Shown in pieces: positions 22,936 to 53,140 of a stretch of 64,000 nucleotides of DNA. Position numbers and translations under genes: made by a program. The DNA is from Flavobacteriales bacterium. Lineage in GTDB: Bacteria; Bacteroidota; Bacteroidia; Flavobacteriales; BACL11. The notes below the pieces were generated by a model. It had not been told where the DNA came from. It saw nothing but the letters and a program-made list of their open reading frames with translations, and did not search any database. Positions within the stretch are counted from its first letter, which is position 1; the number at the start of each line of letters is the position of its first letter. The stretch lies in assembly GCA_947502765.1 (NCBI GenBank), contig CANNBA010000012.1, forward strand, positions 5,341 to 69,340. Direction: 5' to 3'.

Positions 22936-22947
22936 TGGCCTTATTTT

Positions 22948-23556: not shown

Positions 23557-23558
23557 CT

Positions 23559-24464: not shown

Positions 24465-24470
24465 AAAACT

Positions 24471-34704: not shown

Positions 34705-34744
34705 TAAAAAAGAAAAGCCCTGCAAAATATATTGCAAGGCTTTT
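34705..34744 (-). terminator. Rho-independent terminator after the Cys-rich T9SS cargo gene
   Basis: AAAAGCCCTGCAA / TTGCAAGGCTTTT stem (one mismatch) with a 6-nt loop, followed on the minus strand by TTTTCTTTTTT. Confidence 0.55.
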
Positions 34745-34761: not shown

Positions 34762-35448
34762 TTACCTCACAATTAATTTCTTTATAGTTACTGTCTCATT
34801 ATTTACTACCACATTCCCAAAATAAATTCCTTTTGATAAATCTGATATATTAATTTTTTGAGTTCCTCTTTCTGATAATCTTATCCTCTTTACTTCATTG
34901 CCTAAAATATCCATCACAACTAACTTTGCTGGTTTATTTAAATAATAATCAAACCGAACAATTTCTTTTGCGGGATTAGGAAAAAATTCAGAAATTGCAA
35001 TTGGACTAGTTTCAGAAACTGCTGTTGCTGCCCCATGATAAGTAATGTAAACACAGCTTTTATCTAGTGGCGATCCATCAGGATAGAAACAGTATTCAAC
35101 TATTGCTTGACCAACTTCACAATAAGCATCAAAATAACCTCCAAATGAAACTGCATCAGCTTGACCTGATTGTAAAGTTAAATGTGATGCAGATATAATT
35201 GTACTACTAACGTAACAATTACCTCCCCAACAAAAGTAGTTTGACATTGCAGCTGGCTCAGAAATAACATTTTTCTCACAAAGCACATCATGTTCTTTAT
35301 TTGAAACATTCTTTATTGTTAAATATGAGTGTGTTGTTAAGCAAGGATCAGAAGTTAAAACAGAATTGCTACCAGTAACGGTTAAACTTTGGGCACTCAG
35401 ATTTAAAACCTGAGTAATTATCAATAGAAGTAAACTTATTTTTTTCAT
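34762..35448 (-). CDS. Small cysteine-rich secreted protein with a T9SS C-terminal sorting domain
   Basis: Signal peptide. Seven Cys within ~110 residues. The C-terminal ~75 aa (FPNPAKEIVRF...MDILGNEV...LSKGIYFGNVVV...TIKKLIVR) match the type A T9SS CTD pattern. Confidence 0.75.
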   Translation of the reverse strand: MKKISLLLLIITQVLNLSAQSLTVTGSNSVLTSDPCLTTHSYLTIKNVSNKEHDVLCEKNVISEPAAMSNYFCWGGNCYVSSTIISASHLTLQSGQADAVSFGGYFDAYCEVGQAIVEYCFYPDGSPLDKSCVYITYHGAATAVSETSPIAISEFFPNPAKEIVRFDYYLNKPAKLVVMDILGNEVKRIRLSERGTQKINISDLSKGIYFGNVVVNNETVTIKKLIVR

Positions 35449-35462
35449 TACAATAGTTTTGA

Positions 35463-35470
35463 CAAATATA
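35463..35470 (-). promoter_or_regulatory. Candidate -7 box (TATATTTG on the minus strand) for the Cys-rich cargo gene
   Basis: Plus-strand CAAATATA, 14 nt upstream of the ATG at 35448. Confidence 0.4.
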
Positions 35471-35554
35471 CGAAAAATTTCTTTAGTTAAAACAATAGAA
35501 AACTTTTAGATAACTAATTAATGAACATATTAGTGTCAAAAGAAATAATTAAAC

Positions 35555-35562
35555 TAAATTTG
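35555..35562 (+). promoter_or_regulatory. Candidate -7 box TAAATTTG for thioredoxin-fold cargo 1
   Basis: Exact TAnnTTTG, 27 nt upstream of ATG 35590. The flanking sequence is conserved with the paralog's promoter at 37146. Confidence 0.5.
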
Positions 35563-35589
35563 CACCTTAACTAATTTAAAAAAGAAATA

Positions 35590-37044
35590 ATGAAAAAAAC
35601 TTTACTAATTGCTATTGTTGCTTTATTCTCATTCAACAATGCTCAAGCACAATTACCAGATGGTTCTGTAGCTCCAGATTGGACACTAACAGATCTAAAT
35701 GGAACTTCACACAATTTATATACTTATCTTGATAATGGGTATACTGTATTTATTGACTTTTCTGCAACTTGGTGCGGTCCGTGTTGGGGCTATCACATTT
35801 CTGGAGCTCTAGAAAATTTATATGTTGACCATGGCCCAGCGGGGATGCCTAATGTTAGTCCAACTACAACTGATGATGTAATGGTTTTCTTTATTGAAGG
35901 TGATGAAAGCACTTTAGCTGCATTACAAGGAGGTGCTGGCTCTCAAGGTGACTGGATTACTGGAACGCCTTATCCTATTTTACCTACATACGCAGGAACA
36001 AACAGTACTCAGGTTACCTCAGATTATGAAATTGGATATTGGCCAACTGTATATAAGATTTGCCCTGATAGAATCGTAACTGAATGTGGACAATCTTCTA
36101 ACCCATATCCTTTAGTAAGCGCATGTCCTCCTCCTGCTTCTAACAATAATGATGCCAGAACATTTGCTTATGCAGGGGAAACACTAACTTGTGAAGGCAA
36201 TATAGTGCCGGAAATCATGATTCAAAATTATGGAATAGTTAACTTAACATCTTTAACAATTCAAGTATCGGTTAATGGAAATGTAGTTTCTACTACGCCA
36301 TGGACAGGGAATTTAGCAACTTACGCAACTGATAATATTACTTTACCAGCATTAACTGGTTTGGCTAGTAATGATGCTGTAACTATTAATACAACATTAC
36401 CAAATGGAGTGGTTGATGCTAACCCTGCAAATAATCCAACCGTTTCATTTAATGTAACACTAGCAACACAAAATACAGATACTGATGTAACAGTACAGAT
36501 TGTAACTGATGCTTACGGTTCTGAAACAACTTGGGAAATAAAAGATGCAAATGGAGTGACTGTTTTATCAGGTGGTCCTTATAATAATTTAACTGCTTCA
36601 GGAACAACTACTCAAACTCCTGTAGCAGGAACTTTAGCAATTAATACTTGTCATACATTTACTATTTATGATTCTTATGGTGATGGAATTAATGCTGGTT
36701 ATGGAGCAGGATCTTTTACTATAACTGATGGAAACGGTACTATTCTTGCATCTGGAGGGGTATTTACAGATGAAGATGGAGATGCTTTTAAAACTGGAGG
36801 TGGAGTTTTAGCTATTAATGAACTAGCTTCAAACTTAGCTATCTATCCTAACCCAGTAAAAGAGGTATTAACTATTGAAGGTAATTATACTTCAGTTGAT
36901 GTATTTGATATGTTTGGAAAATTGGTTTTATCATCAGAATATTCTAAAAATATTAATGTTTCTACATTGGCTAACGGCATTTATATGCTAAACATTATTA
37001 CTGAAAAAGGAATCCAAACTCAAAAAATTACTATTACTAAATAG
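35590..37044 (+). CDS. Secreted thioredoxin-fold (redoxin/TlpA-like, WCGPCW) protein with middle beta-rich domains and a T9SS C-terminal sorting domain
   Basis: Signal peptide ending AQA. LPDGSVAPDWTLTDLNG...FIDFSATWCGPCW redoxin motif. Middle domain with TTWEIKD...DSYGDGI. C-terminal YPNPVKEVLTIEG...LANGIYMLNI...QKITITK T9SS CTD. Confidence 0.8.
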   Translation: MKKTLLIAIVALFSFNNAQAQLPDGSVAPDWTLTDLNGTSHNLYTYLDNGYTVFIDFSATWCGPCWGYHISGALENLYVDHGPAGMPNVSPTTTDDVMVFFIEGDESTLAALQGGAGSQGDWITGTPYPILPTYAGTNSTQVTSDYEIGYWPTVYKICPDRIVTECGQSSNPYPLVSACPPPASNNNDARTFAYAGETLTCEGNIVPEIMIQNYGIVNLTSLTIQVSVNGNVVSTTPWTGNLATYATDNITLPALTGLASNDAVTINTTLPNGVVDANPANNPTVSFNVTLATQNTDTDVTVQIVTDAYGSETTWEIKDANGVTVLSGGPYNNLTASGTTTQTPVAGTLAINTCHTFTIYDSYGDGINAGYGAGSFTITDGNGTILASGGVFTDEDGDAFKTGGGVLAINELASNLAIYPNPVKEVLTIEGNYTSVDVFDMFGKLVLSSEYSKNINVSTLANGIYMLNIITEKGIQTQKITITK

Positions 37045-37066
37045 TTTTTATAAAGTTCAAAATTTT

Positions 37067-37096
37067 AAACCCTGGCTATTTAGTCAGGGTTTTTAT
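37067..37096 (+). terminator. Rho-independent terminator after thioredoxin-fold cargo 1
   Basis: AAACCCTG / CAGGGTTT stem with a 10-nt loop, followed by TTTTTATTT. Confidence 0.7.
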
Positions 37097-37145
37097 TTGG
37101 CTAAATTTACAAACTCAAAATAATACAAGTAGTTTAATTTTATAC

Positions 37146-37153
37146 TATATTTG
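37146..37153 (+). promoter_or_regulatory. Candidate -7 box TATATTTG for thioredoxin-fold cargo 2
   Basis: Exact TAnnTTTG, 28 nt upstream of ATG 37182. Confidence 0.5.
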
Positions 37154-37181
37154 CTCCCTAACTAATTTTAAAAAAGAAAAA

Positions 37182-38606
37182 ATGAAAAAAATATTACTTA
37201 TTGCAATTGCCGCATTATTCACATTCAGTAATGCTCAAGCGCAACTTCCTAATGGAAGTATCGGACCAGACTTTACAGCAACAGATTTAAATGGTAACAC
37301 TATAAATTTATATACTGACTTTCTTGACCAAGGTATTCCTGTAATTATGGATGTGTCTGCAACATGGTGTGGGCCTTGTTGGAGCTTTCATCAAGGACAT
37401 GCCCTAAAAGATATCTATATGACTTATGGAATGGGTGGATCACAAGAGATTGGAGTGATTTTTGTAGAAGGAGATGGAAGTACAGGACTTGCGCAGCTAC
37501 AAGGAACCGGTGGTAGTACAGCAGGAGATTGGATTACTGGCACGCCATATCCAATACTAGATAATGCAAGTATTGCCAATAGTTATGATATAGCATACTA
37601 TCCAACAGTTTATGGAATTTGTCCTGATAGAACAGTGTATGAAATAGGACAAGGTAGTGCTAGCAATCTTAGACAGCAATTAATTTCTAACTGTGGGTTA
37701 GGAACTAGTTTCACTGGAGTAATAGATAATGCTGGTATTGAAGGAAGTTCAACTAAAATCTGTTTAGGGTAAGACGCTATCCCTTCTGCATCTGTACATA
37801 ATTACGGAACAAATTCTATCGCTTCTTTTACTGCTGAATTATTTGAATTAGGAAATCCAATTGCTATTGATGTAAATAATTGGACTGGAACTTTAGCAGC
37901 ATCTGGAAATGTTACTGTTCAATTTAACCCTGTAGCAGCAACTACCCCAACTACTTATGAAGTAATGGTTTCTAGTCCTAACGGGAACCCAGATAATTAT
38001 CCTACATATAATGAGGGAGAGTTTTACCTTGATTTCGCTGCTAATACTACAGATAATACAGCAATATTTAAATTAAAAATAGACGCCTGGGGTACTGAAA
38101 TAACCTGGAATATTAAAGATGGAACTGGAGCATTGCTTGCTTCTGGAGGTCCGTATGCTGATGGGGCATCAGGTACTGAGTATACTACAAATATTCCTTT
38201 ATCAAGTGATGGATGTTATGAGCTTACTATTAATGACTCATATGGTGATGGAATAAACTCTCCTGGAGGTTATTCGCTTCAAGATCAACAACAATTCCTA
38301 TTTAGTGAAGTGGGGCCAAATTTTGGATATAATGTAATTGAACCTTTTTCTAAAAGTGGATCAGTACTTGGAATTACAAATCAATCAAGTGTGAATCTAA
38401 ATATATACCCTAACCCAGTAAAAGATGTATTAACTATTGAAGGTAATTATACTTCAGTTGATGTATTTGATATGTTTGGAAAATTGGTTTTATCATCAGA
38501 ATATACTAAAAATATTAATGTTTCTACATTGGCTAACGGCATTTATATGCTAAACATTACTACTGAAAAAGGAATCCAAACTCAAAAAATTACTATTACT
38601 AAATAG
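37182..38606 (+). pseudogene. Paralog of the secreted thioredoxin-fold T9SS cargo, interrupted by one in-frame TAA (37770-37772)
   Basis: Track ORFs 37182-37772 and 37965-38606 are in the same frame (783 nt apart). I checked every codon from 37773 to 37964 and found no other stop. The joined product has signal peptide, WCGPCW, DSYGDGI domain and CTD, colinear with 35590-37044. Confidence 0.7.
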
Positions 38607-38627
38607 TTATATAAAGTTCAAAAATTT

Positions 38628-38660
38628 AAACCCTGGCTATATTAGTCAGGGTTTTTATTT
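38628..38660 (+). terminator. Rho-independent terminator after thioredoxin-fold cargo 2
   Basis: Same AAACCCTG / CAGGGTTT hairpin plus T-run as at 37067. Confidence 0.7.
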
Positions 38661-38707
38661 GGCTGAATTTGCAAACTCAAAATAATACAAGTAGTTTAAT
38701 TTTAAAC

Positions 38708-38715
38708 TATATTTG
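38708..38715 (+). promoter_or_regulatory. Candidate -7 box TATATTTG for the tlpA-like to ubiX operon
   Basis: Exact TAnnTTTG, 17 nt upstream of ATG 38733. It lies within repeat copy B. Confidence 0.5.
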
Positions 38716-38732
38716 TACCAATAAAAACCGTA

Positions 38733-39230
38733 ATGAATAAAAAAACACTTTTCAGCTTTTTAGCTATCGCATTAGTTGCATCAATTAGTTTTGGTCAAGG
38801 TAGAGCTTTGCCCAACATACAAGTAAAGACCTTAGATGGCAGTAACTTTAACATTACTAAGCTTAAAAATGATGGCAAGCCAATAGTAATCTCCTTTTGG
38901 GCTACATGGTGTAAGCCCTGTAAAAAAGAACTAAATACTATTGCGGAAGTGTATGAAGATTGGCAAAAGAAAACTGGAGTAAAACTAGTTGCAATCTCAA
39001 TTGATGATCCAAGATCAATGTCGCAAGTAGCTCCTTATGTAAATGCATCTGACTGGCAGTATGAAGTTTATTTGGACCCAAATAATGACTTAAAAAGAGC
39101 TATGGGCGTATCAACCGCTCCACATACTTTTTTGCTAAATGGAAAAAATGAAATTGTTTGGCAGCACAGAGGTTATGTTGATGGGGATGAGGCAGAACTA
39201 TTAAAAGAAATTAAAAAACTAGTAAAATAG
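38733..39230 (+). CDS. Periplasmic TlpA/ResA-like thiol-disulfide oxidoreductase (thioredoxin fold)
   Basis: Signal peptide without a lipobox; VISFWATWCKPCKKE CxxC motif; 165 aa. Confidence 0.85.
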   Translation: MNKKTLFSFLAIALVASISFGQGRALPNIQVKTLDGSNFNITKLKNDGKPIVISFWATWCKPCKKELNTIAEVYEDWQKKTGVKLVAISIDDPRSMSQVAPYVNASDWQYEVYLDPNNDLKRAMGVSTAPHTFLLNGKNEIVWQHRGYVDGDEAELLKEIKKLVK

Positions 39231-39233
39231 TTT

Positions 39234-40925
39234 ATGAAAAAGATTGCGCTCTTTATTACTACAATTAGCATGTCTTTCTTAGGATTTTCTCAAGAAAACA
39301 ATTTAGGAGAAATTCATGGCGATTTTAATCTTAACTTACAATCCTATCAAGAAGATTTACAAATTGGAGCTAAAGCGGCTGATGAAATCATCCTCAACAA
39401 TGCTTACTTAAACCTAAATTACACAAAAGGAAATTTTGCAACTGGATTACGATACGAAAGCTACCTAAATGCATTAGTCGATTACGACCCTGAATTTAAA
39501 GGTAATGGTATTGCCTACAGATATGCCACCTACAGTATTGATGGGCTAGAGATTACTGCAGGTAATTATTACGAGCAATTAGGCAGTGGACTTATTTTTA
39601 GAAGTTATGAAGAAAAAGGACTTGGAATTGACAATGCTATGGATGGAGTGCGGTTAAAATACAGCCCAATAGAAGGTATGTATTTAAAAACATTTATTGG
39701 AAAAAGCAGAACTTATTTTGATTATGCTGATGGTATTTTCAGAGGTGCAGATGGAGAGCTAAACATCAATGAATTATTCAATTCTGAATCCAAAACAAAA
39801 ATAATTTTAGGGGGAAGTTTTGTGAGTCGATACCAAGAAAGAAGCAATCTTATCTTTAAAATACCTCAGAACGTTAGCTCTTATGCTGGTAGAATGAACT
39901 TAAATCACGGAGGCTGGAGTTATTATGGGGAATATGCTTATAAAATTAATGACCCTGCAAATGTTTTGACTGCAAGCAAAATGAATTATGCAAGTGGCAA
40001 TGCTTTTACCCAAAACATCACTTTTTCAAAAAAAGGATTTGGAATTATAGCAGAGATGCATAGAACGGACAATATGACTTTTAAATCAGATAGAGATAGA
40101 GATGGGAAAGCCTATTTAATCAATTATATCCCTACTTTAAGTAAGCCACATGCTTATACTTTATTAGCACTTTATCCATGCGCTACACAAGCAAATGGAG
40201 AATTTGGAATCCAATTTGATGTTTTTTACAAATTTCAAAAAGAAACTTTACTGGGGGGGGAATACGGAACAAAACTAGCTCTTAATTATTCTCGAATAAA
40301 TGGCTTAAATTGGGGGAATTCATTCTTAAATGACAATACTGAACATACTCCTATGCTTATTAGTATTAAGAATGAGGAATTGTATTTTAATGACATTAAT
40401 TTAACCATAAATAAAAAATTAAATTCGAATACAGAAGCTAACTTTGTTGTAGCGAATCAAACTTACAATAAAGATTTATTAGAAGGGCATGTTCCTGGCG
40501 ATTATGGAGTTCTTAATTCAACCATACTAATTGCCGATTTAAGTTATGAAATTAAGCAAGGTCATTCTTTGAGAATGGAATTACAAAATCTGATATCTAA
40601 CCAACTTGAAGATTATTCGACTAGTGGTGGGGGATATGAAAATGGAATGGAAGAGCCAGCAGAAGGTGATTGGGGTATGGCTCTTTTAGAATACACCGTT
40701 TCTCCTCATTGGTTTTTTACGGTTCAAGACATGTACAACTATGGAAATGAGTTAGAAGAAAAACAGCTGCATTATTTAAATCTAACGGCTGGTTTTATAA
40801 AAGGAGCAAACCGCTTTGAGATCGGTTACGGAAAGAAAAGAGAAGGAATATTTTGCGTTGGTGGAATATGCAAACTTGTCCCCTCATCAAACGGATTTAG
40901 TGTTAACATATCATCCAGTTTTTAA
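39234..40925 (+). CDS. Putative outer-membrane beta-barrel protein (unknown function)
   Basis: Signal peptide; alternating aromatic/Gly-rich strands; C-terminal ...VNISSSF with a terminal Phe, typical of OMPs. Starts 3 nt after the tlpA-like stop. Confidence 0.55.
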   Translation: MKKIALFITTISMSFLGFSQENNLGEIHGDFNLNLQSYQEDLQIGAKAADEIILNNAYLNLNYTKGNFATGLRYESYLNALVDYDPEFKGNGIAYRYATYSIDGLEITAGNYYEQLGSGLIFRSYEEKGLGIDNAMDGVRLKYSPIEGMYLKTFIGKSRTYFDYADGIFRGADGELNINELFNSESKTKIILGGSFVSRYQERSNLIFKIPQNVSSYAGRMNLNHGGWSYYGEYAYKINDPANVLTASKMNYASGNAFTQNITFSKKGFGIIAEMHRTDNMTFKSDRDRDGKAYLINYIPTLSKPHAYTLLALYPCATQANGEFGIQFDVFYKFQKETLLGGEYGTKLALNYSRINGLNWGNSFLNDNTEHTPMLISIKNEELYFNDINLTINKKLNSNTEANFVVANQTYNKDLLEGHVPGDYGVLNSTILIADLSYEIKQGHSLRMELQNLISNQLEDYSTSGGGYENGMEEPAEGDWGMALLEYTVSPHWFFTVQDMYNYGNELEEKQLHYLNLTAGFIKGANRFEIGYGKKREGIFCVGGICKLVPSSNGFSVNISSSF

Positions 40926-40926
40926 A

Positions 40927-41799
40927 ATGAAAAAATACATCACACTACTAAGCATAATTTTCACAATATCAGCTTGTGATAAAATTGAGGGGCCATACAT
41001 TATAAATTCGGATTCATATGTAAATCCTGACAAGAAAGTTCTTGTAGAAGATTTTACAGGACATTTATGTCCTAATTGCCCTGATGCTGCACGAGAGTTA
41101 GAGGCAATTCATGATATTTATGGAGATCAAATAATTAGTATGGCTATACATGTAAGTAAATCTTTTGCAAGACCATACCCATCTAGTCAAGCTCCAAATT
41201 TTCAATATGACTTCAGAACAAATTGGGGAGATAACTGGGATGCCTTTTTTGGGATTTCTAATGTTGGGCTACCAAGAGGAATGGTTAACAGGATTGGCTA
41301 TCAAAATGACTCTCATAAATTAGGAAAAGATGAGTGGGCAAGTGCAGTTGCTCTTGAACTTAAGAAAGAAGTTGACTTTAAAATTTCAATAAATGCCGAT
41401 ACAAACACAATTACAATTTCATCAACATTAGAAAATGCTGTAGTTAATAATTACAATCTTGTTGTGTGCTTAACAGAAAGTAATATTATCAATTGGCAAA
41501 AAGATGGACAAGAAAATGTTGAAAATTATACGCATAATCATGTTTTAAGAACAGTTATTTATAACGACAAATTATCTGCTCAAACGAATTTTGAAAGTGG
41601 TGAAGTTGTAGAAAATAACTTTGAAATTAGCCTATCTGAATTAGAACAATACAATATTAATTACTCAACAAATACTGCCGAATTAGGCAATGGCAATGCG
41701 GGTGGTTGGAATGCGGCAAATATGTCAGTTGTTGCTTATATTTACAATACAATTACTAAAGAGATTGTGCAGGTTGAAGAAGCACATTTAACTAATTAA
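40927..41799 (+). CDS. Lipoprotein with a thioredoxin-like CPNC motif (Omp28-related type, recalled from memory)
   Basis: Start moved to ATG 40927 (MKKYITLLSIIFTISAC, lipobox ISAC). The track's 40816 start overlaps the upstream gene. Motif VEDFTGHLCPNCPDA. Confidence 0.6.
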   Translation: MKKYITLLSIIFTISACDKIEGPYIINSDSYVNPDKKVLVEDFTGHLCPNCPDAARELEAIHDIYGDQIISMAIHVSKSFARPYPSSQAPNFQYDFRTNWGDNWDAFFGISNVGLPRGMVNRIGYQNDSHKLGKDEWASAVALELKKEVDFKISINADTNTITISSTLENAVVNNYNLVVCLTESNIINWQKDGQENVENYTHNHVLRTVIYNDKLSAQTNFESGEVVENNFEISLSELEQYNINYSTNTAELGNGNAGGWNAANMSVVAYIYNTITKEIVQVEEAHLTN

Positions 41800-41809
41800 A
41801 ATTACTAGT

Positions 41810-42736
41810 ATGAAAAAATTACTATTTACATTTTTAGCTGGGTTTATTGGATTTACATCTTATGGGCAAGCAGATGAAATTATAGATGGGAAAAGCTTAA
41901 TTAAAGCCTATATTAGTCCATTAGGAAATAGCTTTGGTGCTGCTTTGAATAACGGATGGTATAATACTGCTAAGCCCCATAAACTAGGTGGTTTTGATGT
42001 TACTATTACTGCCAACATTGTAATAGTTCCTCCTAATGCAAAAACATTTAATGTCTCCGAATCGAATGGAAACACATTTAAAGGTGTTGAAACTCCAACA
42101 ATTTTAGGTAATGGAAATGGATCTCAAGTTACTTATAGTGAGGCACAATACGATATGCCAAAAGGGCTTAATATACCTGTTATTCCTCTGCCAATGTTAC
42201 AAGCCGGAGTTGGCTTAATAAAAAGTACAGAAATAGATGTCCGATATATGCCAGAACTTAAAATTTGCAATGCTGGTAAGATGGGTTTATTTGGGATAGG
42301 ATTAAAACATGATATCTTACAATGGTTACCTATTGTGGATAAAATTCCGATAGATCTTTCGGTACAAGCAGGCTACACAAAGCTTAGTTCAGAAATTAAA
42401 CTTATAGAACCTACGAGCACCACATCTCCCCAAGCAAACTTAGATGTTTCTGCAACCACAATAAATCTAATACTCTCAAAAAAATTATTAATGTTTACTC
42501 CATATTTAGGATTAGGCTATAACTCAACAAAAACAACTTTTAATATTAATGGGGATTACAATATAGCTGGATTACCTATTGATATAGATGAGTTGACAAA
42601 ATTAGATTTTGAAAGCAATAATTTTAGAGCAAATATTGGTTTTAGGTTTAATATTGCTGTGCTTGCATTACAGGCTAATTATACTTTTGCAGAGTACCCA
42701 ACTGCAACTCTTGGGCTTGGAGTTAGTTTGAGATAA
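41810..42736 (+). CDS. Putative outer-membrane protein, unknown family
   Basis: Signal peptide (…FTSYGQA); beta-rich, Gly/aromatic alternation; no TM helices. Confidence 0.4.
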   Translation: MKKLLFTFLAGFIGFTSYGQADEIIDGKSLIKAYISPLGNSFGAALNNGWYNTAKPHKLGGFDVTITANIVIVPPNAKTFNVSESNGNTFKGVETPTILGNGNGSQVTYSEAQYDMPKGLNIPVIPLPMLQAGVGLIKSTEIDVRYMPELKICNAGKMGLFGIGLKHDILQWLPIVDKIPIDLSVQAGYTKLSSEIKLIEPTSTTSPQANLDVSATTINLILSKKLLMFTPYLGLGYNSTKTTFNINGDYNIAGLPIDIDELTKLDFESNNFRANIGFRFNIAVLALQANYTFAEYPTATLGLGVSLR

Positions 42737-42737
42737 T

Positions 42738-43349
42738 ATGATAAAGAAATTTGCAATAATCCTTAGTTGTGGATTTCTAACTTTTAGCATTCAAGCGCAA
42801 GATTTTGGTGGTGGAGTTATTTTAGGGCTTAGCACCTCACAAGTGGGAGGAGATAATCTAGCAGGGTTCCATAAAGCAGGTTTATTACTAGGTGTTTTTG
42901 CAAATAAATCTATCACAGAACTTTTAAGTTTTCAAATGGAGATGACCTATATCCAAAAAGGAAGTAACAACCCGAACATGAATAATCCTGAACATCCAAA
43001 TTTGCTTCCAGATATTTCTCTTTCATACATAGAAGTACCATTATTATTACAATATCATCAAAGCGATAAGTTAAAAATTGAAGGGGGTGTACTAACAGCT
43101 TACCTAGTTGATGGTCATTATAATGACTTAAGTGGGGAAATGCCTAATGAACCAAATCCATTTATCAGTTATGATATTGGCTTATTGCTTGGGATTGACT
43201 ATAAATATTCTGAAAATATTAGTTTAAATACAAGAATTAGAAATTCCATTTTACCAATTGGTTCTGAAGATTACAAAAATTTAGATTCAGACTTCAAAAA
43301 AGGAAAATACAATTCCGTTTTAAGTTTCGCTTTACATTATAATTTCTAA
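42738..43349 (+). CDS. Small outer-membrane beta-barrel (porin-family / OmpW-size)
   Basis: Signal peptide ending IQAQ; 203 aa; C-terminal ...SFALHYNF with a terminal Phe. Confidence 0.55.
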   Translation: MIKKFAIILSCGFLTFSIQAQDFGGGVILGLSTSQVGGDNLAGFHKAGLLLGVFANKSITELLSFQMEMTYIQKGSNNPNMNNPEHPNLLPDISLSYIEVPLLLQYHQSDKLKIEGGVLTAYLVDGHYNDLSGEMPNEPNPFISYDIGLLLGIDYKYSENISLNTRIRNSILPIGSEDYKNLDSDFKKGKYNSVLSFALHYNF

Positions 43350-43915
43350 TGAACAAAAAACACAAAATAATAGTTGCAGTTTCAGGAGCAAGTGGAGCAA
43401 TCTATGCCAAAGTTTTATTTGATAAATTGGTCCAATTAAATAACCAAATAGAAAAAATTGGAGTCCTAATGTCTGATAATGCCAAGTATGTTTGGGAGCA
43501 AGAGCTTGGCAATACTGATTACAAAAATTACCCTTTTACATTTTATAACAAAATGGATTTTATGGCTCCTTTTGCCAGTGGATCTGCAAATTACGGAACA
43601 ATGATAATATGCCCATCATCAATGGGAACTATGGGGCGTATTGCTAGTGGAATAAGTGATGATTTAACAACAAGAGCAGCTGATGTAATCCTAAAAGAAA
43701 GACGAAAACTTATTATTGTAGCAAGAGAAACTCCTTTAAGTTTAATACACATTAATAATATGAAGTTAATTACAGAGGCTGGTGGAATTATCTGCCCCGC
43801 AACCCCTTCTTTTTATAGCAAGCCTCAAACTTTTGAAGAACTGGCTGCTACAGTAATTGATAGAGTATTAACACTCTCAGGTTTACAAAACGATTCATAT
43901 AGTTGGAACGAATAA
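43349..43915 (+). CDS. ubiX: Flavin prenyltransferase UbiX (prenyl-FMN synthase)
   Basis: IIVAVSGASGAIYA and CPSSMGTMGRIASG motifs; 188 aa. Start overlaps the previous stop (TAATG). Confidence 0.9.
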   Translation: MNKKHKIIVAVSGASGAIYAKVLFDKLVQLNNQIEKIGVLMSDNAKYVWEQELGNTDYKNYPFTFYNKMDFMAPFASGSANYGTMIICPSSMGTMGRIASGISDDLTTRAADVILKERRKLIIVARETPLSLIHINNMKLITEAGGIICPATPSFYSKPQTFEELAATVIDRVLTLSGLQNDSYSWNE

Positions 43916-43964: not shown

Positions 43965-44150
43965 ATGTTAGAATTCAGTAAAAAAATCCTAAGTAAAGTT
44001 AGTTTTGATAAAAATCTTTTCAAAAAAGAACTTTCAAAAAGCATAAGATGGTTGAGTAAAAAGGAAGTATTAACTTTAAAAATATGGGCACTTACTACTT
44101 TTTCGCAATACAAAAATACTATCCAAGAAGTTTTTGATCAAATCTCTTAA
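43965..44150 (+). CDS. Hypothetical small Lys-rich protein (61 aa)
   Basis: ORF only. No recognisable motif or promoter box. Lies 49 nt downstream of ubiX and overlaps the ruvB stop convergently by 4 nt. Confidence 0.25.
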
Positions 44151-45237: not shown

Positions 45238-46422
45238 TTATGTATGTAAGTGTTTGGACTCATCTAAGAAAGGATGATTTTTAGTTTCTAAAGGTGCTTT
45301 TGTTAAAGTATTTAACGTTAAGTAAATTAACAGTCCAGCAAAACCTAATCCCATTCCGATCTCAGTAAAACCAATATGGCCATGCGTTCCTAAAGTTCCT
45401 GGCGCGACTAATAAATAAGAATTGAGCCAATGGCCAAGTAATATTACGCAACTAACAAAAATTAATCTGCTACTGTTTCTTTTGGCATCTCTACTCATTA
45501 ATAAAATAATTGGAAAAAGGAAATTAATAAGCATACTGAACCAGAATAAAAATTTGTAATTTTTAACTTCAAGCCTTGCCGTAAAATAAGTTACTTCTTC
45601 AGGAATATTGGCATACCAAATTAACATAAACTGTGAAAACCACATATAAGTCCAAACTAAAGAGAAAGCAAAAATCCATTTTCCTAAGTCATGAATATGA
45701 CTTTCATTTACATCTTTTAAATACCCTTGTCTTTTTAAATACAGTGTGAATAAAAAGATTGTGGTAAAACCAATCGCACTCCATTCAGCAAAAACATACC
45801 AACCAAAAATAGTGGAGAACCAGTGCGCGTCAATCGACATAATCCAGTCCCAAGATGCCATTGCAGAAGTAACTGCAAAAAACACCATGAACCAAGCTGA
45901 AGTGCTAACCCCTTTAAAATGAATTCCTGGTCCTGATTGCTTATCTTCAAGTAGAGATAATGATCTTAATTTTTTAGCAAAATAATTCCATCCTAATAAG
46001 TAAACTATTGTTCTAATAACAAAGAAAGTTGCATTTAAATAAGGCTCTTTTCCCGATATTATTCGATCATAGTGTTCGCTTGCAGGATCCATAATTCCCT
46101 CATGTAACCAGTGATAAATATGATTCCAATGCATAATAGAAGCAATCATAATGAATAGCATAATTCCACTAAACACTGGAAGTGCTCCCATAATTGCTTC
46201 TGGTACTCTCTTAAGGACAATTGACCATCCGGCTTCCGCAACATATTGCAAAGCCACAAAGAATACTGCAAATACTGATATTCCTAAATAAAAGTAGGTG
46301 TTGAATAAAAGTGCAGGCCAAGCTCCGTGGGGATTTGAAACAAATCCAAAAATTACTGTTATAATCCCAATAGCCATAAGGGCCATAGAAAAATTCTTTG
46401 CTTTTTTATCTATTGTAAACAT
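45238..46422 (-). CDS. actF: Alternative complex III membrane subunit ActF-like
   Basis: 394-aa polytopic membrane protein occupying the last position of the act operon. Confidence 0.65.
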   Translation of the reverse strand: MFTIDKKAKNFSMALMAIGIITVIFGFVSNPHGAWPALLFNTYFYLGISVFAVFFVALQYVAEAGWSIVLKRVPEAIMGALPVFSGIMLFIMIASIMHWNHIYHWLHEGIMDPASEHYDRIISGKEPYLNATFFVIRTIVYLLGWNYFAKKLRSLSLLEDKQSGPGIHFKGVSTSAWFMVFFAVTSAMASWDWIMSIDAHWFSTIFGWYVFAEWSAIGFTTIFLFTLYLKRQGYLKDVNESHIHDLGKWIFAFSLVWTYMWFSQFMLIWYANIPEEVTYFTARLEVKNYKFLFWFSMLINFLFPIILLMSRDAKRNSSRLIFVSCVILLGHWLNSYLLVAPGTLGTHGHIGFTEIGMGLGFAGLLIYLTLNTLTKAPLETKNHPFLDESKHLHT

Positions 46423-46423
46423 T

Positions 46424-47005
46424 CTAATTCTCTTTTAATTTTTCGCCTTGTAACTTTTGAACATGAAGTACAATCTTCCACCTCTCTTGTTCAGTAATTT
46501 GAGAAGCATGAGGCCCCATTGCATTTAAACCATATGTAATAGCATGGAAAATATGGCCAGATTTTAATTGATTCATTGGGACGTCTGCTCTTCTTAATAA
46601 TTTAGCGTCATTATAATGAGGTACTGCAGAATAAATTGGATGTTTAATTGTTCCATCTCCCGCACCTGTTGCTCCGTGACAATGCTGACAAAACATTCCA
46701 TAAAGGGCTTGGCCATCTGCTAAGTTTTTTTCATTATTTTCTAGTGGATTAACTACTGTATTTCCTGCAGCTAAATATCCTTCTAAAGTATTGTCATAAT
46801 TAAAGGCTAATAATTTTCCTTTAGCAATAGTCCCTTTTACAGGCTTTCCGTCATAATTTTCTATATTGTGCTCTTCATAAGTTTCTATACTTGGAGAGCG
46901 GTACATATTAGGCATATATTCGTATCCAGGACTAGAATCCCCTCCGCAAGAAGTAAAGAATATAACTGCTATAATAAATACGGTTGTTGTTAATAGTTTA
47001 TTCAT
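46424..47005 (-). CDS. actE: Alternative complex III monoheme cytochrome c subunit
   Basis: Lipoprotein-like signal (FFTSCGG) and a single CQHCH heme-binding motif. Confidence 0.75.
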   Translation of the reverse strand: MNKLLTTTVFIIAVIFFTSCGGDSSPGYEYMPNMYRSPSIETYEEHNIENYDGKPVKGTIAKGKLLAFNYDNTLEGYLAAGNTVVNPLENNEKNLADGQALYGMFCQHCHGATGAGDGTIKHPIYSAVPHYNDAKLLRRADVPMNQLKSGHIFHAITYGLNAMGPHASQITEQERWKIVLHVQKLQGEKLKEN

Positions 47006-47007
47006 AA

Positions 47008-47529
47008 TTAAGCATCTTTTTCATTAATTTCTGAAGCCCCTGTCTTAGCAAGTATATTTTTTACAGAAGATGCATCACCTTCAACCTCAATCTCCATTAA
47101 AAATTTATCGTCTGTAGTTCTTGGATCAGGACTTCCAGATTTTCCTCCTGGGAACAAGCCACATCTTATCAAATAAGTAATTGACATGAGGTGGGCAGCA
47201 AACATTACAGTACATTCAAATAAGATAGGAACAAAAGCCGGCATGTTATGATAGAAAGTCCAATTTGGCTTACCTCCAATATTTTGTGGCCAATCAATTA
47301 TCATAATATTATAAATCATTAAAGCACCTAATGAAAGTCCTATACAACCATATATAAAAGCTGTAATTGCCATTCTTGTTTCTTTTAGACCTAAAGCTTT
47401 ATCCAATCCATGTACTGGAAAAGGAGAATAAACTTCCTTAATATCAATATTATTGGCACGGATTTCTTTTACTGAAGAAAGCAGAACTTCTTCATCATCA
47501 AAAATACCGTATATTGTTTTTGTACTCAT
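47008..47529 (-). CDS. actD: Alternative complex III subunit ActD (DUF3341-like)
   Basis: 173 aa with two central TM helices, in the conserved operon position between actC and actE. Confidence 0.7.
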   Translation of the reverse strand: MSTKTIYGIFDDEEVLLSSVKEIRANNIDIKEVYSPFPVHGLDKALGLKETRMAITAFIYGCIGLSLGALMIYNIMIIDWPQNIGGKPNWTFYHNMPAFVPILFECTVMFAAHLMSITYLIRCGLFPGGKSGSPDPRTTDDKFLMEIEVEGDASSVKNILAKTGASEINEKDA

Positions 47530-48908
47530 TATTTCTTGTTTTTATGTTCTGAACCTGACGATTTAAGAATAGTTTTAAGTTCTGCTTGAGCAATTACTGG
47601 GAATGTTCTGGCATAGAGCAGAAACAAAGTGAAAAAAAATCCTATCGTTCCTAAGAAAATTCCAATGTCAATAAATGAAGGAGAAAACATGGTCCATGCT
47701 GTTGGCAAAAAGTCTCTATGTAATGAAGTAACAATAATCACAAATCTTTCGAACCACATACCAATATTTACAAAGATTGAAAGTATAAATGTCGCTACAA
47801 ATGATGTTCTTATAGATTTAATCCAATACAATTGTGGAGTTAACACATTACACGTCATCATAATGGCATAAGCCCACCAATAAGGGCCAGTGGCTCTATT
47901 TAAAAAGGCATATTGCTCAAATTCAACCCCTGAATACCAAGCCATAAATAGCTCCGTAATATAAGCAGTTCCTACTAAAGAACCCGTCAACAAGATAATG
48001 ACATTCATATATTCAATATGCTTAATGGTAATATAAGCTTCTAAACCTACCACTTTTCGCATAATAATTAATAATGTTTCAACCATGGCAAAGCCAGAAA
48101 AAAGCGCTCCCAATACAAAGTAAGGAGGGAAGATAGTTGTATGCCATCCTGGAATTACAGAAGTTGCAAAGTCCATAGATACTATTGAGTGAACCGAGAA
48201 TACGAGTGGAGTAGCCAATCCTGCTAATACTAAGGATACTTCTTCAAATCTTTGCCAGTGCTTAGCTCTTCCGCTCCAGCCAAAAGAAAGAAAAGAATAT
48301 AATTTCTTTTTCATTGGTGATATTGTAGCGCTCATTCGATCTCTTATCATAGCAAAATCAGGAATTAACCCAATGTACCAAAATACTACGGAAACTGATA
48401 AATATGTAGAGATTGCAAATACATCCCAAAGTAATGGCGAGTTAAAATTAACCCAAAGCGATCCAAACTGATTTGGAATTGGTAATACATAGTAAGCAAG
48501 CCAAGGTCGGCCCATATGAATTAAAGGGAATAATCCTGCTTGAACAACACCAAAGATAGTCATTGCCTCAGCTGAACGATTAATAGCCATTCTCCATTTT
48601 TGACGAAATAATAAAAGTACGGCTGAAATTAATGTTCCGGCATGGCCAATACCAATCCACCAAACAAAGTTCGTAATATCCCACGCCCAGTTAACCGTTT
48701 TATTAAGTCCCCAAGCTCCAATTCCGGTTCCTATTGTGTAAGATATACAAAGAACTCCCCAAATGAATAACACTAATGATAAGGAAAATAATATCCACCA
48801 ATATTTATTGGCTTTGCCCTCAACAGGGCGAGCTACATCTTTAGTAATATCATGATACGTTTTATTACCTAAAATTAATGGATCTCTAATTTCTGCTTCT
48901 TTTTGCAT
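47529..48908 (-). CDS. actC: Alternative complex III quinol-interacting membrane subunit (NrfD/PsrC-like)
   Basis: 459 aa, ~10 TM helices, NrfD-like character. Follows the Fe-S subunit. Confidence 0.8.
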   Translation of the reverse strand: MQKEAEIRDPLILGNKTYHDITKDVARPVEGKANKYWWILFSLSLVLFIWGVLCISYTIGTGIGAWGLNKTVNWAWDITNFVWWIGIGHAGTLISAVLLLFRQKWRMAINRSAEAMTIFGVVQAGLFPLIHMGRPWLAYYVLPIPNQFGSLWVNFNSPLLWDVFAISTYLSVSVVFWYIGLIPDFAMIRDRMSATISPMKKKLYSFLSFGWSGRAKHWQRFEEVSLVLAGLATPLVFSVHSIVSMDFATSVIPGWHTTIFPPYFVLGALFSGFAMVETLLIIMRKVVGLEAYITIKHIEYMNVIILLTGSLVGTAYITELFMAWYSGVEFEQYAFLNRATGPYWWAYAIMMTCNVLTPQLYWIKSIRTSFVATFILSIFVNIGMWFERFVIIVTSLHRDFLPTAWTMFSPSFIDIGIFLGTIGFFFTLFLLYARTFPVIAQAELKTILKSSGSEHKNKK

Positions 48909-48917
48909 AACTATGTA

Positions 48918-51872: not shown

Positions 51873-51896
51873 TTTATATAAAAATCTAAATCCTTA

Positions 51897-53108
51897 TTAA
51901 TAGTGGCACTTACCGCATTCCAAGCCTCCAATTTTTTCCACAGTAATTTTTTGACCTGCATATTTTTTCTTCATTTTTTCGTGCATAACGGTATAGTACT
52001 CATTGCCTTCCATTTTAACTTCTGATTCTCTATGACATTCTATGCACCAACCCATTGTTAATTCTGAATGCTGTTTTACAACATCCATTTCCTCAATCGC
52101 CCCATGACATTCTTGACATTCCAACTTACCCACGCTAACATGTTGCGAGTGATTAAAATAAGCCAAATCTGGTAAATTATGGATTCTCACCCACTCTATT
52201 GGTTTTTGCTCATAACCTTCAATATAGGTTCTTGACTTAGGATCATATCCTACTGCATCATAAATTTTTTGAAGTTCAGCAGTACCTGAAATAGTACCTT
52301 CTACAATGTTTGCATGACAATTCATACATACATTTGCTGACGGAATTCCAGAATGTTTTGATGTACGAGCAGAAGTATGGCAATAATTACAATCTATAGC
52401 ATTATCGCCAGCATGTATTTTATGAGAGAATGCAATTGGCTGAGTTGGCTGATAATTAGTTGTTACTCCCACTCCCATCATTGCATCATAAACAAATTTT
52501 AACACAATAATGGCAATAACAAAACCTAAAAAAAGTTTGTTAAAAGTTTTAGCTAAAAATAACTTAATCTGAGATTGAACAGATTCAGGTACTGTCTGTG
52601 TATCTTGGCCTAAACTTTCTTTAAGACTATTTTTTACTGATGCTAAAACAAAAATAAGAGTTAGTAAAATAAGGGCTATTATCATTAATTGAGTAGACCC
52701 TTTCATTCCTTCATCTATAGGAGCTCCTTCTGCAGAAACAGCTGCTTTGACCTGTTCAACAGGAGGATTTTGTAAGTATACATAAAGCGCTTCAAAATCT
52801 TCATCTGAGAAATTGAAGTTAGTCATAGCAACTTTATTATATTCTTCAAATATTGCAATTGCATCAGGATCTCCTGAGGCAATTAATTCTGACGAATTAT
52901 TAATCCACTTTTTTAACCATTCTTTATTTCTTTTTTCGGTAACACCCTTCAAACCAGGACCTATCAACTTGGTTTCTCCAATAACATGACATGCAGTACA
53001 ATTTTGTTTAAAAATTTTTGCACCATCTGGCTGAGCAAAGGCAGATAATGAAATAAATGCTGCTAGAATAAATAAGATTTGATTTTTGATAGGTTTAGCT
53101 AGAATCAT
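51897..53108 (-). CDS. actA: Alternative complex III multiheme cytochrome c ActA with an N-terminal extra class-I cytochrome c domain (six CxxCH in total)
   Basis: CxxCH motifs CTACH, CNYCH, CMNCH, CQECH, CIECH and CGKCH. ATG 53108 is preferred because the track's TTG start (53135) lies inside the promoter box. Confidence 0.8.
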   Translation of the reverse strand: MILAKPIKNQILFILAAFISLSAFAQPDGAKIFKQNCTACHVIGETKLIGPGLKGVTEKRNKEWLKKWINNSSELIASGDPDAIAIFEEYNKVAMTNFNFSDEDFEALYVYLQNPPVEQVKAAVSAEGAPIDEGMKGSTQLMIIALILLTLIFVLASVKNSLKESLGQDTQTVPESVQSQIKLFLAKTFNKLFLGFVIAIIVLKFVYDAMMGVGVTTNYQPTQPIAFSHKIHAGDNAIDCNYCHTSARTSKHSGIPSANVCMNCHANIVEGTISGTAELQKIYDAVGYDPKSRTYIEGYEQKPIEWVRIHNLPDLAYFNHSQHVSVGKLECQECHGAIEEMDVVKQHSELTMGWCIECHRESEVKMEGNEYYTVMHEKMKKKYAGQKITVEKIGGLECGKCHY

Positions 53109-53132
53109 GTTTTTAATGTTCAATTTCGGGTG

Positions 53133-53140
53133 CAAAATTA
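53133..53140 (-). promoter_or_regulatory. Candidate -7 box (TAATTTTG on the minus strand) for the act operon
   Basis: Plus-strand CAAAATTA is the reverse complement of TAnnTTTG, 24 nt upstream of ATG 53108. Confidence 0.5.

Follow-up and report, generated by a model that had tools for sequence, protein, structure and literature searches.

A conserved tlpA-DUF6029-lipoprotein gene triad as a candidate envelope thiol-redox module in Bacteroidota

The window analyzed here, a 64,000-nucleotide stretch of a contig from a Flavobacteriales bacterium, carries at positions 34762 to 43915 a cluster of genes for thioredoxin-fold and outer-membrane proteins. The gene at 34762..35448, on the minus strand, encodes a small T9SS cargo of 228 aa (PF18962, 8.4e-13; TIGR04183, 6.4e-11), an accessory member of the module proposed below, and is followed at its 3' end by a terminator-like hairpin (34713..34744, minus strand; 13-bp stem, then a T run). 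The remaining features lie on the plus strand. The gene for a T9SS-exported thioredoxin-fold protein, copy 1 (35590..37044; 484 aa; PF18962, 3e-14), has a hairpin of the same kind at its 3' end (37067..37092; 11-bp stem, then a T run), and a disrupted second gene, copy 2 (37182..38606; in-frame TAA at 37770-37772), precedes a third (38628..38654; 12-bp stem, then a T run), which is upstream of tlpA. Given these strong terminator-like hairpins, both T9SS-thioredoxin genes and the small cargo gene form separate transcription units.

The core genes begin with tlpA (38733..39230), which encodes a TlpA/ResA-family periplasmic thiol-disulfide oxidoreductase of 165 aa; its WATWCKPC site and its matches to the AhpC-TSA (1.2e-21) and Redoxin (5.5e-18) profiles bear out the first-pass annotation of a TlpA-like protein. 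The other two encode a DUF6029 outer-membrane beta-barrel (39234..40925; 563 aa; PF19494, 2.4e-174) and an Omp28/HBP35-like lipoprotein (40927..41799; 290 aa; NF033782, 2.3e-40). Behind them lie genes for a DUF6588 signal-peptide protein (41810..42736; 308 aa; PF20230, 6.5e-91), a small barrel of the OMP_b-brl_2/TDE1717 family (42738..43349; 203 aa; PF13568, 6.1e-12; NF049866, 7.3e-12), and, as the final operon gene, the UbiX flavin prenyltransferase (43349..43915; TIGR00421, 5.6e-49). As described in the first-pass annotation, there are three signal-peptide proteins of outer-membrane type, two of which end in Phe (DUF6029, ...SSSF; OMP_b-brl_2, ...HYNF; DUF6588 ends in ...SLR). The intergenic gaps from tlpA to ubiX are 3, 1, 10, 1, and -1 nt, and the scan for terminator-like hairpins found none inside this stretch, in agreement with the single operon proposed at the outset. 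The cluster lies 717 nt from the start of sprA, which matches the 0.7 kb first given, but ruvA intervenes.

Copy 1 comprises a signal peptide, a redoxin-like N-domain (SATWCGPCW), two middle domains, and a type A CTD. Its matches to the thioredoxin, AhpC, and ResA profiles are sub-threshold, and WCxPC is kept in 120 of 120 homologs. At the protein level, copies 1 and 2 share 48% identity, and the 3' 315 nt of the two genes are 96% identical, a repeat that includes the hairpin 3' of copy 1. The TAA, at codon 197, splits copy 2 into a 196-aa thioredoxin fragment with a signal peptide and no CTD (37182-37772) and a 213-aa ORF with a CTD and no signal peptide (37965-38606). Copy 2 was not found in the same-species assemblies L083 and L084 or in the relative L001. 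It is probably a pseudogene or a truncated periplasmic thioredoxin. The tandem pair of redoxin-CTD proteins first described is thus reduced to copy 1, copy 2 being interrupted here and missing from those three assemblies, and three of the four reported CxxC thioredoxin-fold proteins stand; with this one error, the initial description was largely correct.

A synteny survey anchored on DUF6029 covered 80 species-level loci from several Bacteroidota orders, in which DUF6029 is merely 38 to 67% identical to the query. The tlpA gene is directly upstream of DUF6029 in 73 to 74 of these loci, and an Omp28-family lipoprotein gene is directly downstream in 75; when the lipoprotein is used as the anchor instead, the triad appears in 7 of 9 contexts. 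The synteny is therefore conserved outside this genome, as are the CxxC cysteines, each of the three core proteins keeping its pair in all or nearly all homologs. Counting against a module, among DUF6029 loci with flanking sequence L032 and L055 lack both partners and L013 lacks tlpA, and the lipoprotein contexts L089 and L097 lack both tlpA and DUF6029. We found no description of the triad as a system in the literature searched.

The window TlpA matches the ResA subfamily model (9.2e-25), and its best PDB match is 2m72 (1.3e-45), which we take to be PG_2175, with ResA entries next; W-C-x-P-C is present in 71 of 74 TlpA proteins encoded upstream of DUF6029. Proteins of the TlpA/ResA/CcmG type are reductants fed by DsbD/CcdA. 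At locus L090, a full-length dsbD (DsbD_N + DsbD_TM + Trx) begins 2 nt behind the gene for the lipoprotein, but this was seen in one lineage only, with dsbD adjacency in 0 of the 80 DUF6029 loci. The AF2 model of DUF6029 (pLDDT, 89.7; pTM, 0.86) has about 24 strands. The loop at residues 113 to 135 is highly conserved, and the tip of the last hairpin carries an invariant C541-V-G-G-I-C546; across the family, C-x-G-G-x-C is found in 80/80 loci and 120/125 cluster representatives, with a terminal F in all. The topology read from the AF2 secondary structure would place this hairpin on the extracellular side, and access for periplasmic TlpA would then be limited to biogenesis.

Besides its lipobox (ISAC), the lipoprotein has CPNC in a thioredoxin-like N-domain and also contains a beta-sandwich domain. 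The first-pass reading of a lipoprotein with CPNC in a thioredoxin-like context proved sound, the protein belonging to the Omp28 family (PF11551, 1.1e-19). Its C-x-x-C is present in 51/51 and 74/74 homologs in two sets; C17, T44, C48, C51, P52, P116, and R208 are invariant in A2, and the same residues are invariant in A3 except R208, which is nearly so. A conserved Pro occupies the place where a thioredoxin fold would have its cis-proline. The AF2 model (pLDDT, 90.1) has HBP35 (5y1a) as its top Foldseek match (E, 1.2e-10; TM, 0.57/0.53), and the family profile matches 2r2c (1.7e-28) and 5y1a (1.7e-4), the latter with CxxC aligned. The mature N terminus is conserved as C-D-K/I/V-I/V-E/D-x-P-Y, which resembles, without matching, the published export signal C-X-K-(D/E)2-X.

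Around the core, accessory genes vary. Among 57 informative loci, T9SS cargo of any kind is directly upstream of tlpA in 41 and CxxC T9SS cargo is linked to the core in 32, which upholds the proposed link between CTD-thioredoxins and the triad. Where a large CTD gene directly precedes tlpA, its product has CxxC in 32 of 33 cases. All 41 upstream-slot proteins have a CTD; 23 match Pfam Omp28 and 5 match Redoxin/AhpC, such that two different thioredoxin subtypes fill the same slot, usually as CxxC proteins of the Omp28/HBP35 type or, in the window for example, of the redoxin type. Across loci, the 3.5 kb before DUF6029 show an approximately 10-fold enrichment of CTD-encoding ORFs (3.62 versus 0.38 per 10 kb), more than chance would give. 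The small cargo (signal peptide, N-domain of ~130 aa, conserved Cys loop FCWGGNCY at C73/C78, type A CTD) has family members in 40/80 loci, with N47, C73, and C78 as the only invariant residues and the Cys spaced as Cx4C in 23, Cx3C in 16, and Cx10C in 2; the seven Cys and CTD reported for this divergent cargo are indeed present here, but just two of the seven Cys are conserved across the family. The OMP_b-brl_2 barrel, of about 200 aa, follows the lipoprotein in 29/80 loci and also in L089, L091, L094, and L097, and by this count it is a frequent accessory gene. DUF6588, though within the operon here, is lineage specific, being confined to the 7 closest of the 80 loci, and ubiX, co-located in 23/80 loci, none of them labelled Lentimicrobium, is probably an operon passenger; neither holds up as a module part.

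In total, these observations lend good support to a dedicated envelope thiol-redox module, and of the thiol-disulfide idea first put forward, the core synteny, the Cys conservation, and the T9SS link survive, while DUF6588, ubiX, most small-cargo Cys, and copy 2 drop out, and electron passage over the outer membrane, barrels as conduits, and the small cargo as substrate stay conjectural. We posit, with roughly even confidence for and against, that the locus is one copy of a conserved Bacteroidota module in which TlpA is a dedicated reductant and which carries out thiol-disulfide chemistry at the surface. The core would be three co-transcribed genes, tlpA, DUF6029, and the Omp28/HBP35-type lipoprotein, and the accessories would be one or two T9SS-exported CxxC proteins (resembling HBP35 in most lineages, redoxin-like in the window), the small Cys-loop T9SS cargo, and the small 200-aa barrel. 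In this model, an inner-membrane DsbD/CcdA system would pass electrons to TlpA, which would reduce the cysteines of its neighbors during their passage through, or exposure to, the periplasm; an outer-membrane or surface assembly would then be built from the barrel, lipoprotein, and T9SS proteins, and its HBP35-like CxxC domains may act on surface Cys-loop partners or external substrates.

One could go further and conjecture an electron relay across the outer membrane, from DsbD via TlpA and the C-x-G-G-x-C of DUF6029 to the surface HBP35-like lipoprotein and T9SS thioredoxins, a scheme that we consider unlikely. If true, it would provide catalytic reducing power at the cell surface, a thiol analogue of DsbD (inner membrane) or MtrCAB (outer membrane). 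A conserved Cys pair is available at each step, the architecture, with a redox protein in the periplasm, a large barrel, a lipoprotein, and T9SS CxxC proteins at the surface, would suit it, dsbD is part of the operon in L090, the acidic, K-containing mature N terminus of the lipoprotein is LES-like, and surface CxxC proteins would be single-turnover unless some re-reduction route exists. However, the lone Cys pair, at the predicted extracellular tip of the last hairpin, is poorly placed for periplasmic electrons, TlpA would have to enter the barrel lumen, and structure searches with DUF6029 return generic large barrels only, MtrB among many matches, all with TM <= 0.47. We also know of no precedent for thiol-disulfide transfer through an outer-membrane barrel, which counts against the relay.

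Could the module instead handle metal or heme, with the lipoprotein and T9SS proteins binding via CxxC and His, DUF6029 as an uptake or insertion channel, and TlpA keeping ligand Cys reduced? We find this doubtful. The Bradyrhizobium TlpA, which keeps the Sco copper chaperone reduced, is a precedent, and the conserved His of the lipoprotein (nearly invariant H75, plus H203 and H205; motif Y-x-H-x-H-V-L-R), together with its CxxC, would be compatible with a role as metal or heme ligands as well. HBP35 binds hemin and aids growth when heme is limiting (PMC2907840). In aerobic Flavobacteriales, moreover, the module is often near ACIII and cytochrome oxidase genes, but such respiratory neighbors are missing in Bacteroidales, Lentimicrobium, and other loci that retain the triad, and the surroundings of DUF6029 show no conserved gene for a TonB-dependent receptor, Hmu, or Sco. 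The His are present in 14 to 22 of 29 T9SS type-B paralogs, below E41, C48, C51, P116, and R208, which those proteins share with the lipoprotein, and the CxxC of type-A T9SS proteins is a classical WCGPC thioredoxin site.

We give still less credence to a biogenesis unit, in which TlpA and the lipoprotein would serve only the disulfide of the DUF6029 hairpin (and that of the small-cargo loop), by forming, isomerizing, or protecting it, and place no more in its corollary that the real function is that of the barrel, as a porin or an exporter, possibly of polysaccharide, after the Wzi-like relatives of DUF6029. No feature of the DUF6029 family is more invariant than the Cys pair, HHpred similarity of DUF6029 to barrel-only Wzi homologues with OPX genes nearby has been reported (PMC9603273), and the periplasmic disulfide oxidoreductase CHU_1165 of Cytophaga is reported to affect outer-membrane proteins (as cited in PMC11611037). 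Against this, a single hairpin disulfide would hardly call for two dedicated catalysts plus T9SS CxxC proteins, the surveyed DUF6029 neighborhoods show no conserved polysaccharide export genes next to the triad, and Wzi does not appear in the top 50 structural matches of DUF6029. Coincidental clustering of a general cytochrome c maturation or CuA-assembly reductase with unrelated outer-membrane proteins is disfavored as very improbable: TlpA does score best against ResA and DsbE models, and genes for ACIII c-type cytochromes follow 1.3 kb downstream in the window, but ruvB stands between them and the operon on the opposite strand, tlpA adjoins DUF6029 in about 74 of 80 loci despite differing surroundings with no ccsBA or ccdA found near the triad in the neighborhood survey, which argues against a purely general reductase, and the conserved Cys pairs of both neighbors would be left unexplained.

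How does the proposed module compare with known systems? MtrCAB offers an analogy only: it likewise combines a redox protein in the periplasm with a large barrel and a redox lipoprotein, but the module has no hemes and no sequence or specific fold relationship to it (TM <= 0.47), and electron transfer via the barrel is conjectural here. HBP35 (P. gingivalis PG0616, PDB 5Y1A), which the window lipoprotein matches best in structure, also has a beta-sandwich after a CxxC-bearing thioredoxin-like N-domain, and its VLEVFTAEWCGYCP motif is aligned by the profile of the lipoprotein family; its gene, we assume, adjoins ahpCF rather than tlpA-DUF6029. HBP35 reduces insulin via C48/C51 and is exported by the T9SS (PMC2907840), as would be the CxxC proteins encoded before tlpA in most loci. 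Unlike HBP35, the window lipoprotein is lipid anchored and without a CTD, and the window's own T9SS thioredoxins have a redoxin/TlpA-like N-domain (WCGPC). Omp28 (P. gingivalis PG2173, PDB 2R2C, PF11551), which has, to our knowledge, no known function, is clearly homologous in its C-terminal domain (profile E, 1.7e-28), including Y-x-H-x-H-V-L-R, although the window lipoprotein, unlike members of the NCBIfam Omp28 subfamily (NF033782), scores just below the cutoff (138.5 versus 150). Omp28 itself is an outer-membrane lipoprotein (PMC9722745). With the DsbD/CcdA to TlpA/ResA/CcmG pathways, the module shares the TlpA-family fold, the WCxPC site, dsbD in the operon of one lineage, and the principle of encoding a dedicated periplasmic reductant next to its clients. 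The known clients of those pathways (apocytochrome c, Sco, CoxB, and Msr) are periplasmic or inner-membrane proteins, whereas TlpA is linked here to a barrel and a lipoprotein of the outer membrane and to T9SS surface proteins.

The association of a TlpA-family protein, a DUF6029 barrel and an Omp28-family lipoprotein, which the first-pass annotation had noted in this one genome, is conserved outside it. An alignment of 58 diverse DUF6029 proteins served to retrieve 80 species-level genome loci, whose DUF6029 proteins are 38-67% identical to the query and which are labelled Flavobacteriales, Bacteroidales, Chitinophaga, Sphingobacteriaceae, Hymenobacter and Lentimicrobium, plus MAGs labelled Chlorobi and Ignavibacteria. 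In 73-74 of the 80 loci, the gene directly upstream of DUF6029 encodes a TlpA homolog, and in 75, the next gene downstream encodes an Omp28-like lipoprotein; several of the loci missing one or the other are contig ends. When the search was anchored on the lipoprotein, using diverse homologs (28-38% identity), TlpA-DUF6029-Omp28 was recovered in 7 of 9 contexts, and the remaining 2 retain Omp28-OMP_b-brl_2-UbiX alone. Neighbor clustering across the 80 loci found no further conserved partner, and it assigned ruvA, ruvB, sprA, malic enzyme, queG and the COX genes to lineage-level synteny rather than to the module. DUF6588 is confined to the 7 closest of the 80 loci, and a small barrel follows the lipoprotein in 29/80 and ubiX in 23/80; the small barrel may be an independent partner of the lipoprotein. 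Some lineages carry a tandemly duplicated Omp28-like lipoprotein, a single protein of ~500-540 aa encoded directly after DUF6029 (P0391-P0394, P0503; L092 1973-3523). The lipoprotein-anchored contexts L089 and L097 have Omp28-like, OMP_b-brl_2 and UbiX together without TlpA or DUF6029, and L089 has an uncalled 2-kb gap (6028-8001) in the barrel's expected place, possibly a decayed gene.

Nearly all elements of the earlier gene list were borne out in the window by a listing of ORFs, by HMM scans and by reading the sequence directly. Near-identical proteins bear names that point to a marine Flavobacteriales MAG of the "Cryomorphaceae BACL11" type. A T9SS cargo of 228 aa with 7 Cys (34762-35448, minus strand; the small cargo) precedes a T9SS cargo of 484 aa with SATWCGPCW in its N-domain (35590-37044, plus strand; copy 1) and a second T9SS thioredoxin gene (37182-38606; copy 2). 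These are followed by the TlpA/ResA-family protein (38733-39230), DUF6029 with a C-terminal Phe (39234-40925; 2.4e-174), the Omp28-family lipoprotein with its ISAC lipobox and CPNC motif (40927-41799), DUF6588 (41810-42736), an OMP_b-brl_2 barrel with a C-terminal Phe (42738-43349) and UbiX (43349-43915). From tlpA to ubiX, the intergenic gaps are 3, 1, 10, 1 and -1 nt, and a hairpin+T scan found no terminator-like site within that stretch; a strong hairpin+T site lies 3' of each of the three T9SS cargo genes. Thus, the single operon proposed earlier stands from tlpA to ubiX, with the cargo genes transcribed as separate units. A sigma-70 promoter scan scored at shuffle level, the sigma-70 model not being applicable to Bacteroidota.

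Several features surround this operon. A 61-aa ORF between ubiX and ruvB (43965-44150, plus strand) overlaps the ruvB stop by 4 nt, has no Pfam match and is called at the equivalent place in compared loci L001 and L083-L088. Past ruvB, ~1.3 kb downstream of the operon, starts an Alternative Complex III-like operon (45238-53135, minus strand) encoding a multiheme cytochrome c, a molybdopterin/FeS subunit, NrfD-like, ActD, a monoheme cytochrome c and an ActF-like protein. In aerobic Flavobacteriales, though not in other orders, the module repeatedly has respiratory genes close by. Elsewhere, a long low-GC stretch (27-31%; 4062-22847, minus strand, and 22933-25739, plus strand) holds a polysaccharide biosynthesis cluster with glycosyltransferases, a Wzy-like protein, a Wzx-like flippase, an epimerase, an aldehyde dehydrogenase and a DeoC aldolase. 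Adjoining it are cysC, cysD and cysN, genes of PAPS synthesis, a hint that the product may be a sulfated polysaccharide of the cell surface.

The TlpA protein exceeds the Pfam thresholds for AhpC-TSA (77.4 bits; threshold, 26), Redoxin (65.6; 26.6) and Thioredoxin_8 (56.2; 27). Its PDB matches include ResA (1e-14 to 7e-17) and 2m72 (1.3e-45), the latter of which we take to be PG_2175 of Porphyromonas gingivalis. It misses all of the NCBIfam cutoffs for ResA (87.5 versus 170), DsbE (53.7 versus 123) and TlpA (41.9 versus 230), and equivalence to ResA, DsbE/CcmG or rhizobial TlpA was rejected on those grounds; judged by its sequence, it is a member of the TlpA/ResA family and not an equivalog of any named enzyme. 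Its active site is WATWCKPC, and W-C-x-P-C is kept in 71 of 74 adjacent orthologs. TlpA-family proteins are reductants supplied by DsbD/CcdA. In one lineage, represented by the lipoprotein-anchored context L090, the TlpA-DUF6029-Omp28 triad is followed by a gene for a full-length DsbD (6881-9019; DsbD_N + DsbD_TM + thioredoxin, 712 aa) that begins 2 nt downstream of the Omp28-like gene. Neither dsbD nor ccdA turned up in the 80 DUF6029 loci, and none was seen in the 64-kb window. Given that the adjacency is seen in a single lineage, it is supportive of, not decisive for, the direction of electron flow.

The barrel matches PF19494 over its full length (581.4 bits; protein 1-563, model 1-538), and its AF2 model is confident (pLDDT 89.7, pTM 0.86), with 24 long strands and short turns after the even-numbered strands. 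Near the C terminus is the motif C-x-G-G-x-C, present in 80/80 loci and in 120/125 cluster representatives; its cysteines, C541 and C546, are the barrel's sole Cys pair. Outer-membrane barrels usually have both termini in the periplasm. If that holds here, the secondary structure of the model would make two features extracellular or lumenal, namely the most conserved loop (113-135) and the tip of the last hairpin, C541-G-G-C546. A Foldseek search of the model against the PDB returned generic large barrels alone (TM <= 0.47), TonB-dependent transporters among them as generic barrels at a TM of about 0.4, and the family profile run against PDB sequences returned spurious RecA matches alone. A TonB-dependent or SusC-like transporter was rejected, there being no Plug or TonB_dep_Rec match at E <= 0.1. 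In the searched literature, DUF6029 comes up in a single paper, as a possible Wzi-like porin (PMC9603273).

The lipoprotein scores 71.4 bits against PF11551 (cutoff, 34.9) and 138.5 against NF033782, slightly below the cutoff of 150, and its family profile matches 2r2c (Omp28; 1.7e-28) and HBP35 (1.7e-4, with the CxxC aligned) in the PDB. The AF2 model is confident (pLDDT 90.1), and its best PDB match by Foldseek is HBP35 of P. gingivalis (5y1a; E 1.2e-10, TM 0.57, 288 aligned columns), followed by a DUF1223 thioredoxin-like protein and an Omp28 domain. In two alignments, the lipidated Cys17 of the lipobox and the pair C48 and C51 are conserved in 51/51 and 74/74 sequences; T44, P52 and P116 are invariant in both, as is R208 in the first alignment; in the second, R208 is nearly invariant. 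P116 falls where a cis-proline is expected in the thioredoxin fold. Across 123 sequences, the mature N terminus reads C-D(93%)-K/I/V-I/V-E/D(82%)-x-P(90%)-Y/F (after the Cys, residues 18-24 of the window lipoprotein). Surface lipoproteins of Bacteroidota carry an export signal, the LES, after the lipidated Cys, C-X-K-(D/E)2-X or like S-D-D-D-D (PMC5080379); the N terminus here is charged and contains K, but position +4 is hydrophobic. Since its sequence is conserved beyond what a generic surface-export signal needs, it may be a docking motif. The P. gingivalis Omp28 is PG2173 (PMC9722745); PG_2174 is a vesicle protein and uncharacterized (PMC4335976). Should PG_2175, PG_2174 and PG2173 form the triad, then the module occurs in an organism amenable to genetics.

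The link to T9SS cargo appears in a count made without selection on cysteines. Upstream sequence sufficed for this in 57 loci, and in 41 of them tlpA is immediately preceded by the gene of a CTD protein: 32 of these proteins are large with a CxxC, 8 belong to the small cargo family and 1 is of another kind. Within the same loci, the density of CTD ORFs is ~10-fold higher over the 3.5 kb preceding DUF6029 than in the remaining sequence. The 41 CxxC proteins found within 4.5 kb upstream of DUF6029 all match Por_Secre_tail, 23 of them match Pfam Omp28 and 5 match Redoxin/AhpC. Their N termini are of two types, the redoxin "SATWCGPCW" (~10 loci; type A, as in the window) and "EEFTGxxCxxCP" (~30 loci; type B), the second being the motif of the lipoprotein itself, with which type B proteins share E41, C48, C51, P116 and R208. 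That two thioredoxin subtypes occupy one genomic slot argues that the surface CxxC domain is what matters there. Type A homologs keep WCxPC in 120/120 sequences. The small cargo had been described as a seven-Cys protein; the window protein does have seven, and C73 and C78 alone are conserved in all 41 aligned sequences, with spacing varying from Cx3C to Cx4C. We rejected the idea that it mirrors the barrel's C-x-G-G-x-C, because both spacing and residues vary.

The one factual error of the first-pass annotation concerns copy 2, which it took for an intact tandem T9SS thioredoxin. The gene is interrupted by an in-frame TAA (37770-37772), and selenocysteine recoding is ruled out because the codon is not TGA. 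The PF18962 scores of the small cargo, copy 1 and copy 2 are 48.9, 53.5 and 64.1 bits (cutoff, 27). The small cargo and copy 1 combine a Sec signal peptide with a CTD above cutoff and qualify as type A T9SS cargo; copy 2 as encoded does not, since the stop leaves the signal peptide on a thioredoxin fragment and the CTD on a separate ORF, neither of them carrying both. Copy 2, an old paralog of copy 1, is 48% identical to it in protein overall, and over the last 315 nt, terminator included, the two are 96% identical. The 315-nt direct repeat (roughly 36840-37155 and 38402-38715; 96% identity) comprises the 3' gene ends, the terminators and the downstream spacers (37045-37181 and 38607-38732). 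A single copy is present in two same-species assemblies (L083, L084) and in an 85%-identical relative (L001); thus, copy 2 is either strain variable or collapsed in those assemblies. The single-copy state is what recombination between the repeats would leave, with copy 2 lost. In the T9SS thioredoxins, the middle domain (36475-36820, copy 1 residues ~295-410; 37965-38400) has a D-S-Y-G-D-G-I motif and no Pfam match, and it recurs in 19 loci upstream of tlpA.

In total, these observations give good support to a conserved envelope module whose members all have conserved Cys pairs, with TlpA in the periplasm and HBP35-like domains at the outer membrane and the surface. We infer that TlpA reduces its neighbors and that the barrel assembles with the lipoprotein and the T9SS proteins; that electrons cross the outer membrane via the barrel is our conjecture. 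Two other roles are live alternatives. The module could handle metal or heme, as suggested by conserved His residues and by the hemin binding of HBP35, or its role could be limited to barrel biogenesis. A simple relay through the barrel is not favored, because the barrel's sole Cys pair is apparently extracellular in the model. We consider it unlikely that the module is a full thiol conduit, in which electrons would pass from cytoplasmic thioredoxin to DsbD, TlpA, the C-x-G-G-x-C of DUF6029 and finally the surface HBP35-like CxxC proteins; if so, Bacteroidota would possess a renewable extracellular disulfide reductase. Last, the possibility raised earlier that TlpA does no more than serve as the general reductase of cytochrome c maturation is disfavored, because the synteny of the triad persists among differing neighbors, including many loci without adjacent respiratory genes.

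The module provides a first functional context for three uncharacterized families (DUF6029, Omp28 and the small Cys-loop T9SS cargo), and it supplies genomic partners for surface thioredoxins of the HBP35 type; recent work has linked these to oxidative-stress and iron phenotypes among oral and gut Bacteroidota. It is also a concrete candidate answer to the question of how surface CxxC proteins could stay active without available reductant, and its carriers include many abundant marine and gut bacteria. The searched literature yielded no description of the triad or of its T9SS link. The component families are known; what is undescribed in that literature is their conserved association and the Cys hairpin of the barrel.

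To our knowledge, known extracytoplasmic thiol-redox pathways end in the periplasm. The phylum-wide combination of TlpA, a barrel, a thioredoxin-like lipoprotein and T9SS thioredoxins suggests organized cysteine chemistry at or beyond the outer membrane. There is precedent for T9SS surface thioredoxins in HBP35 and in a 2026 preprint on Muribaculaceae. For HBP35 itself, a T9SS protein of the cell surface, insulin reductase activity that depends on the CxxC has been shown, as has binding of hemin (PMC2907840), and the lipoprotein shares its arrangement of a thioredoxin-like domain with a CxxC followed by a beta-sandwich. However, HBP35 is a T9SS cargo, whereas Pfam and NCBIfam HMM scans gave no match to a T9SS CTD in the window lipoprotein; the CTD is carried instead, in other genomes, by paralogs encoded upstream of tlpA.
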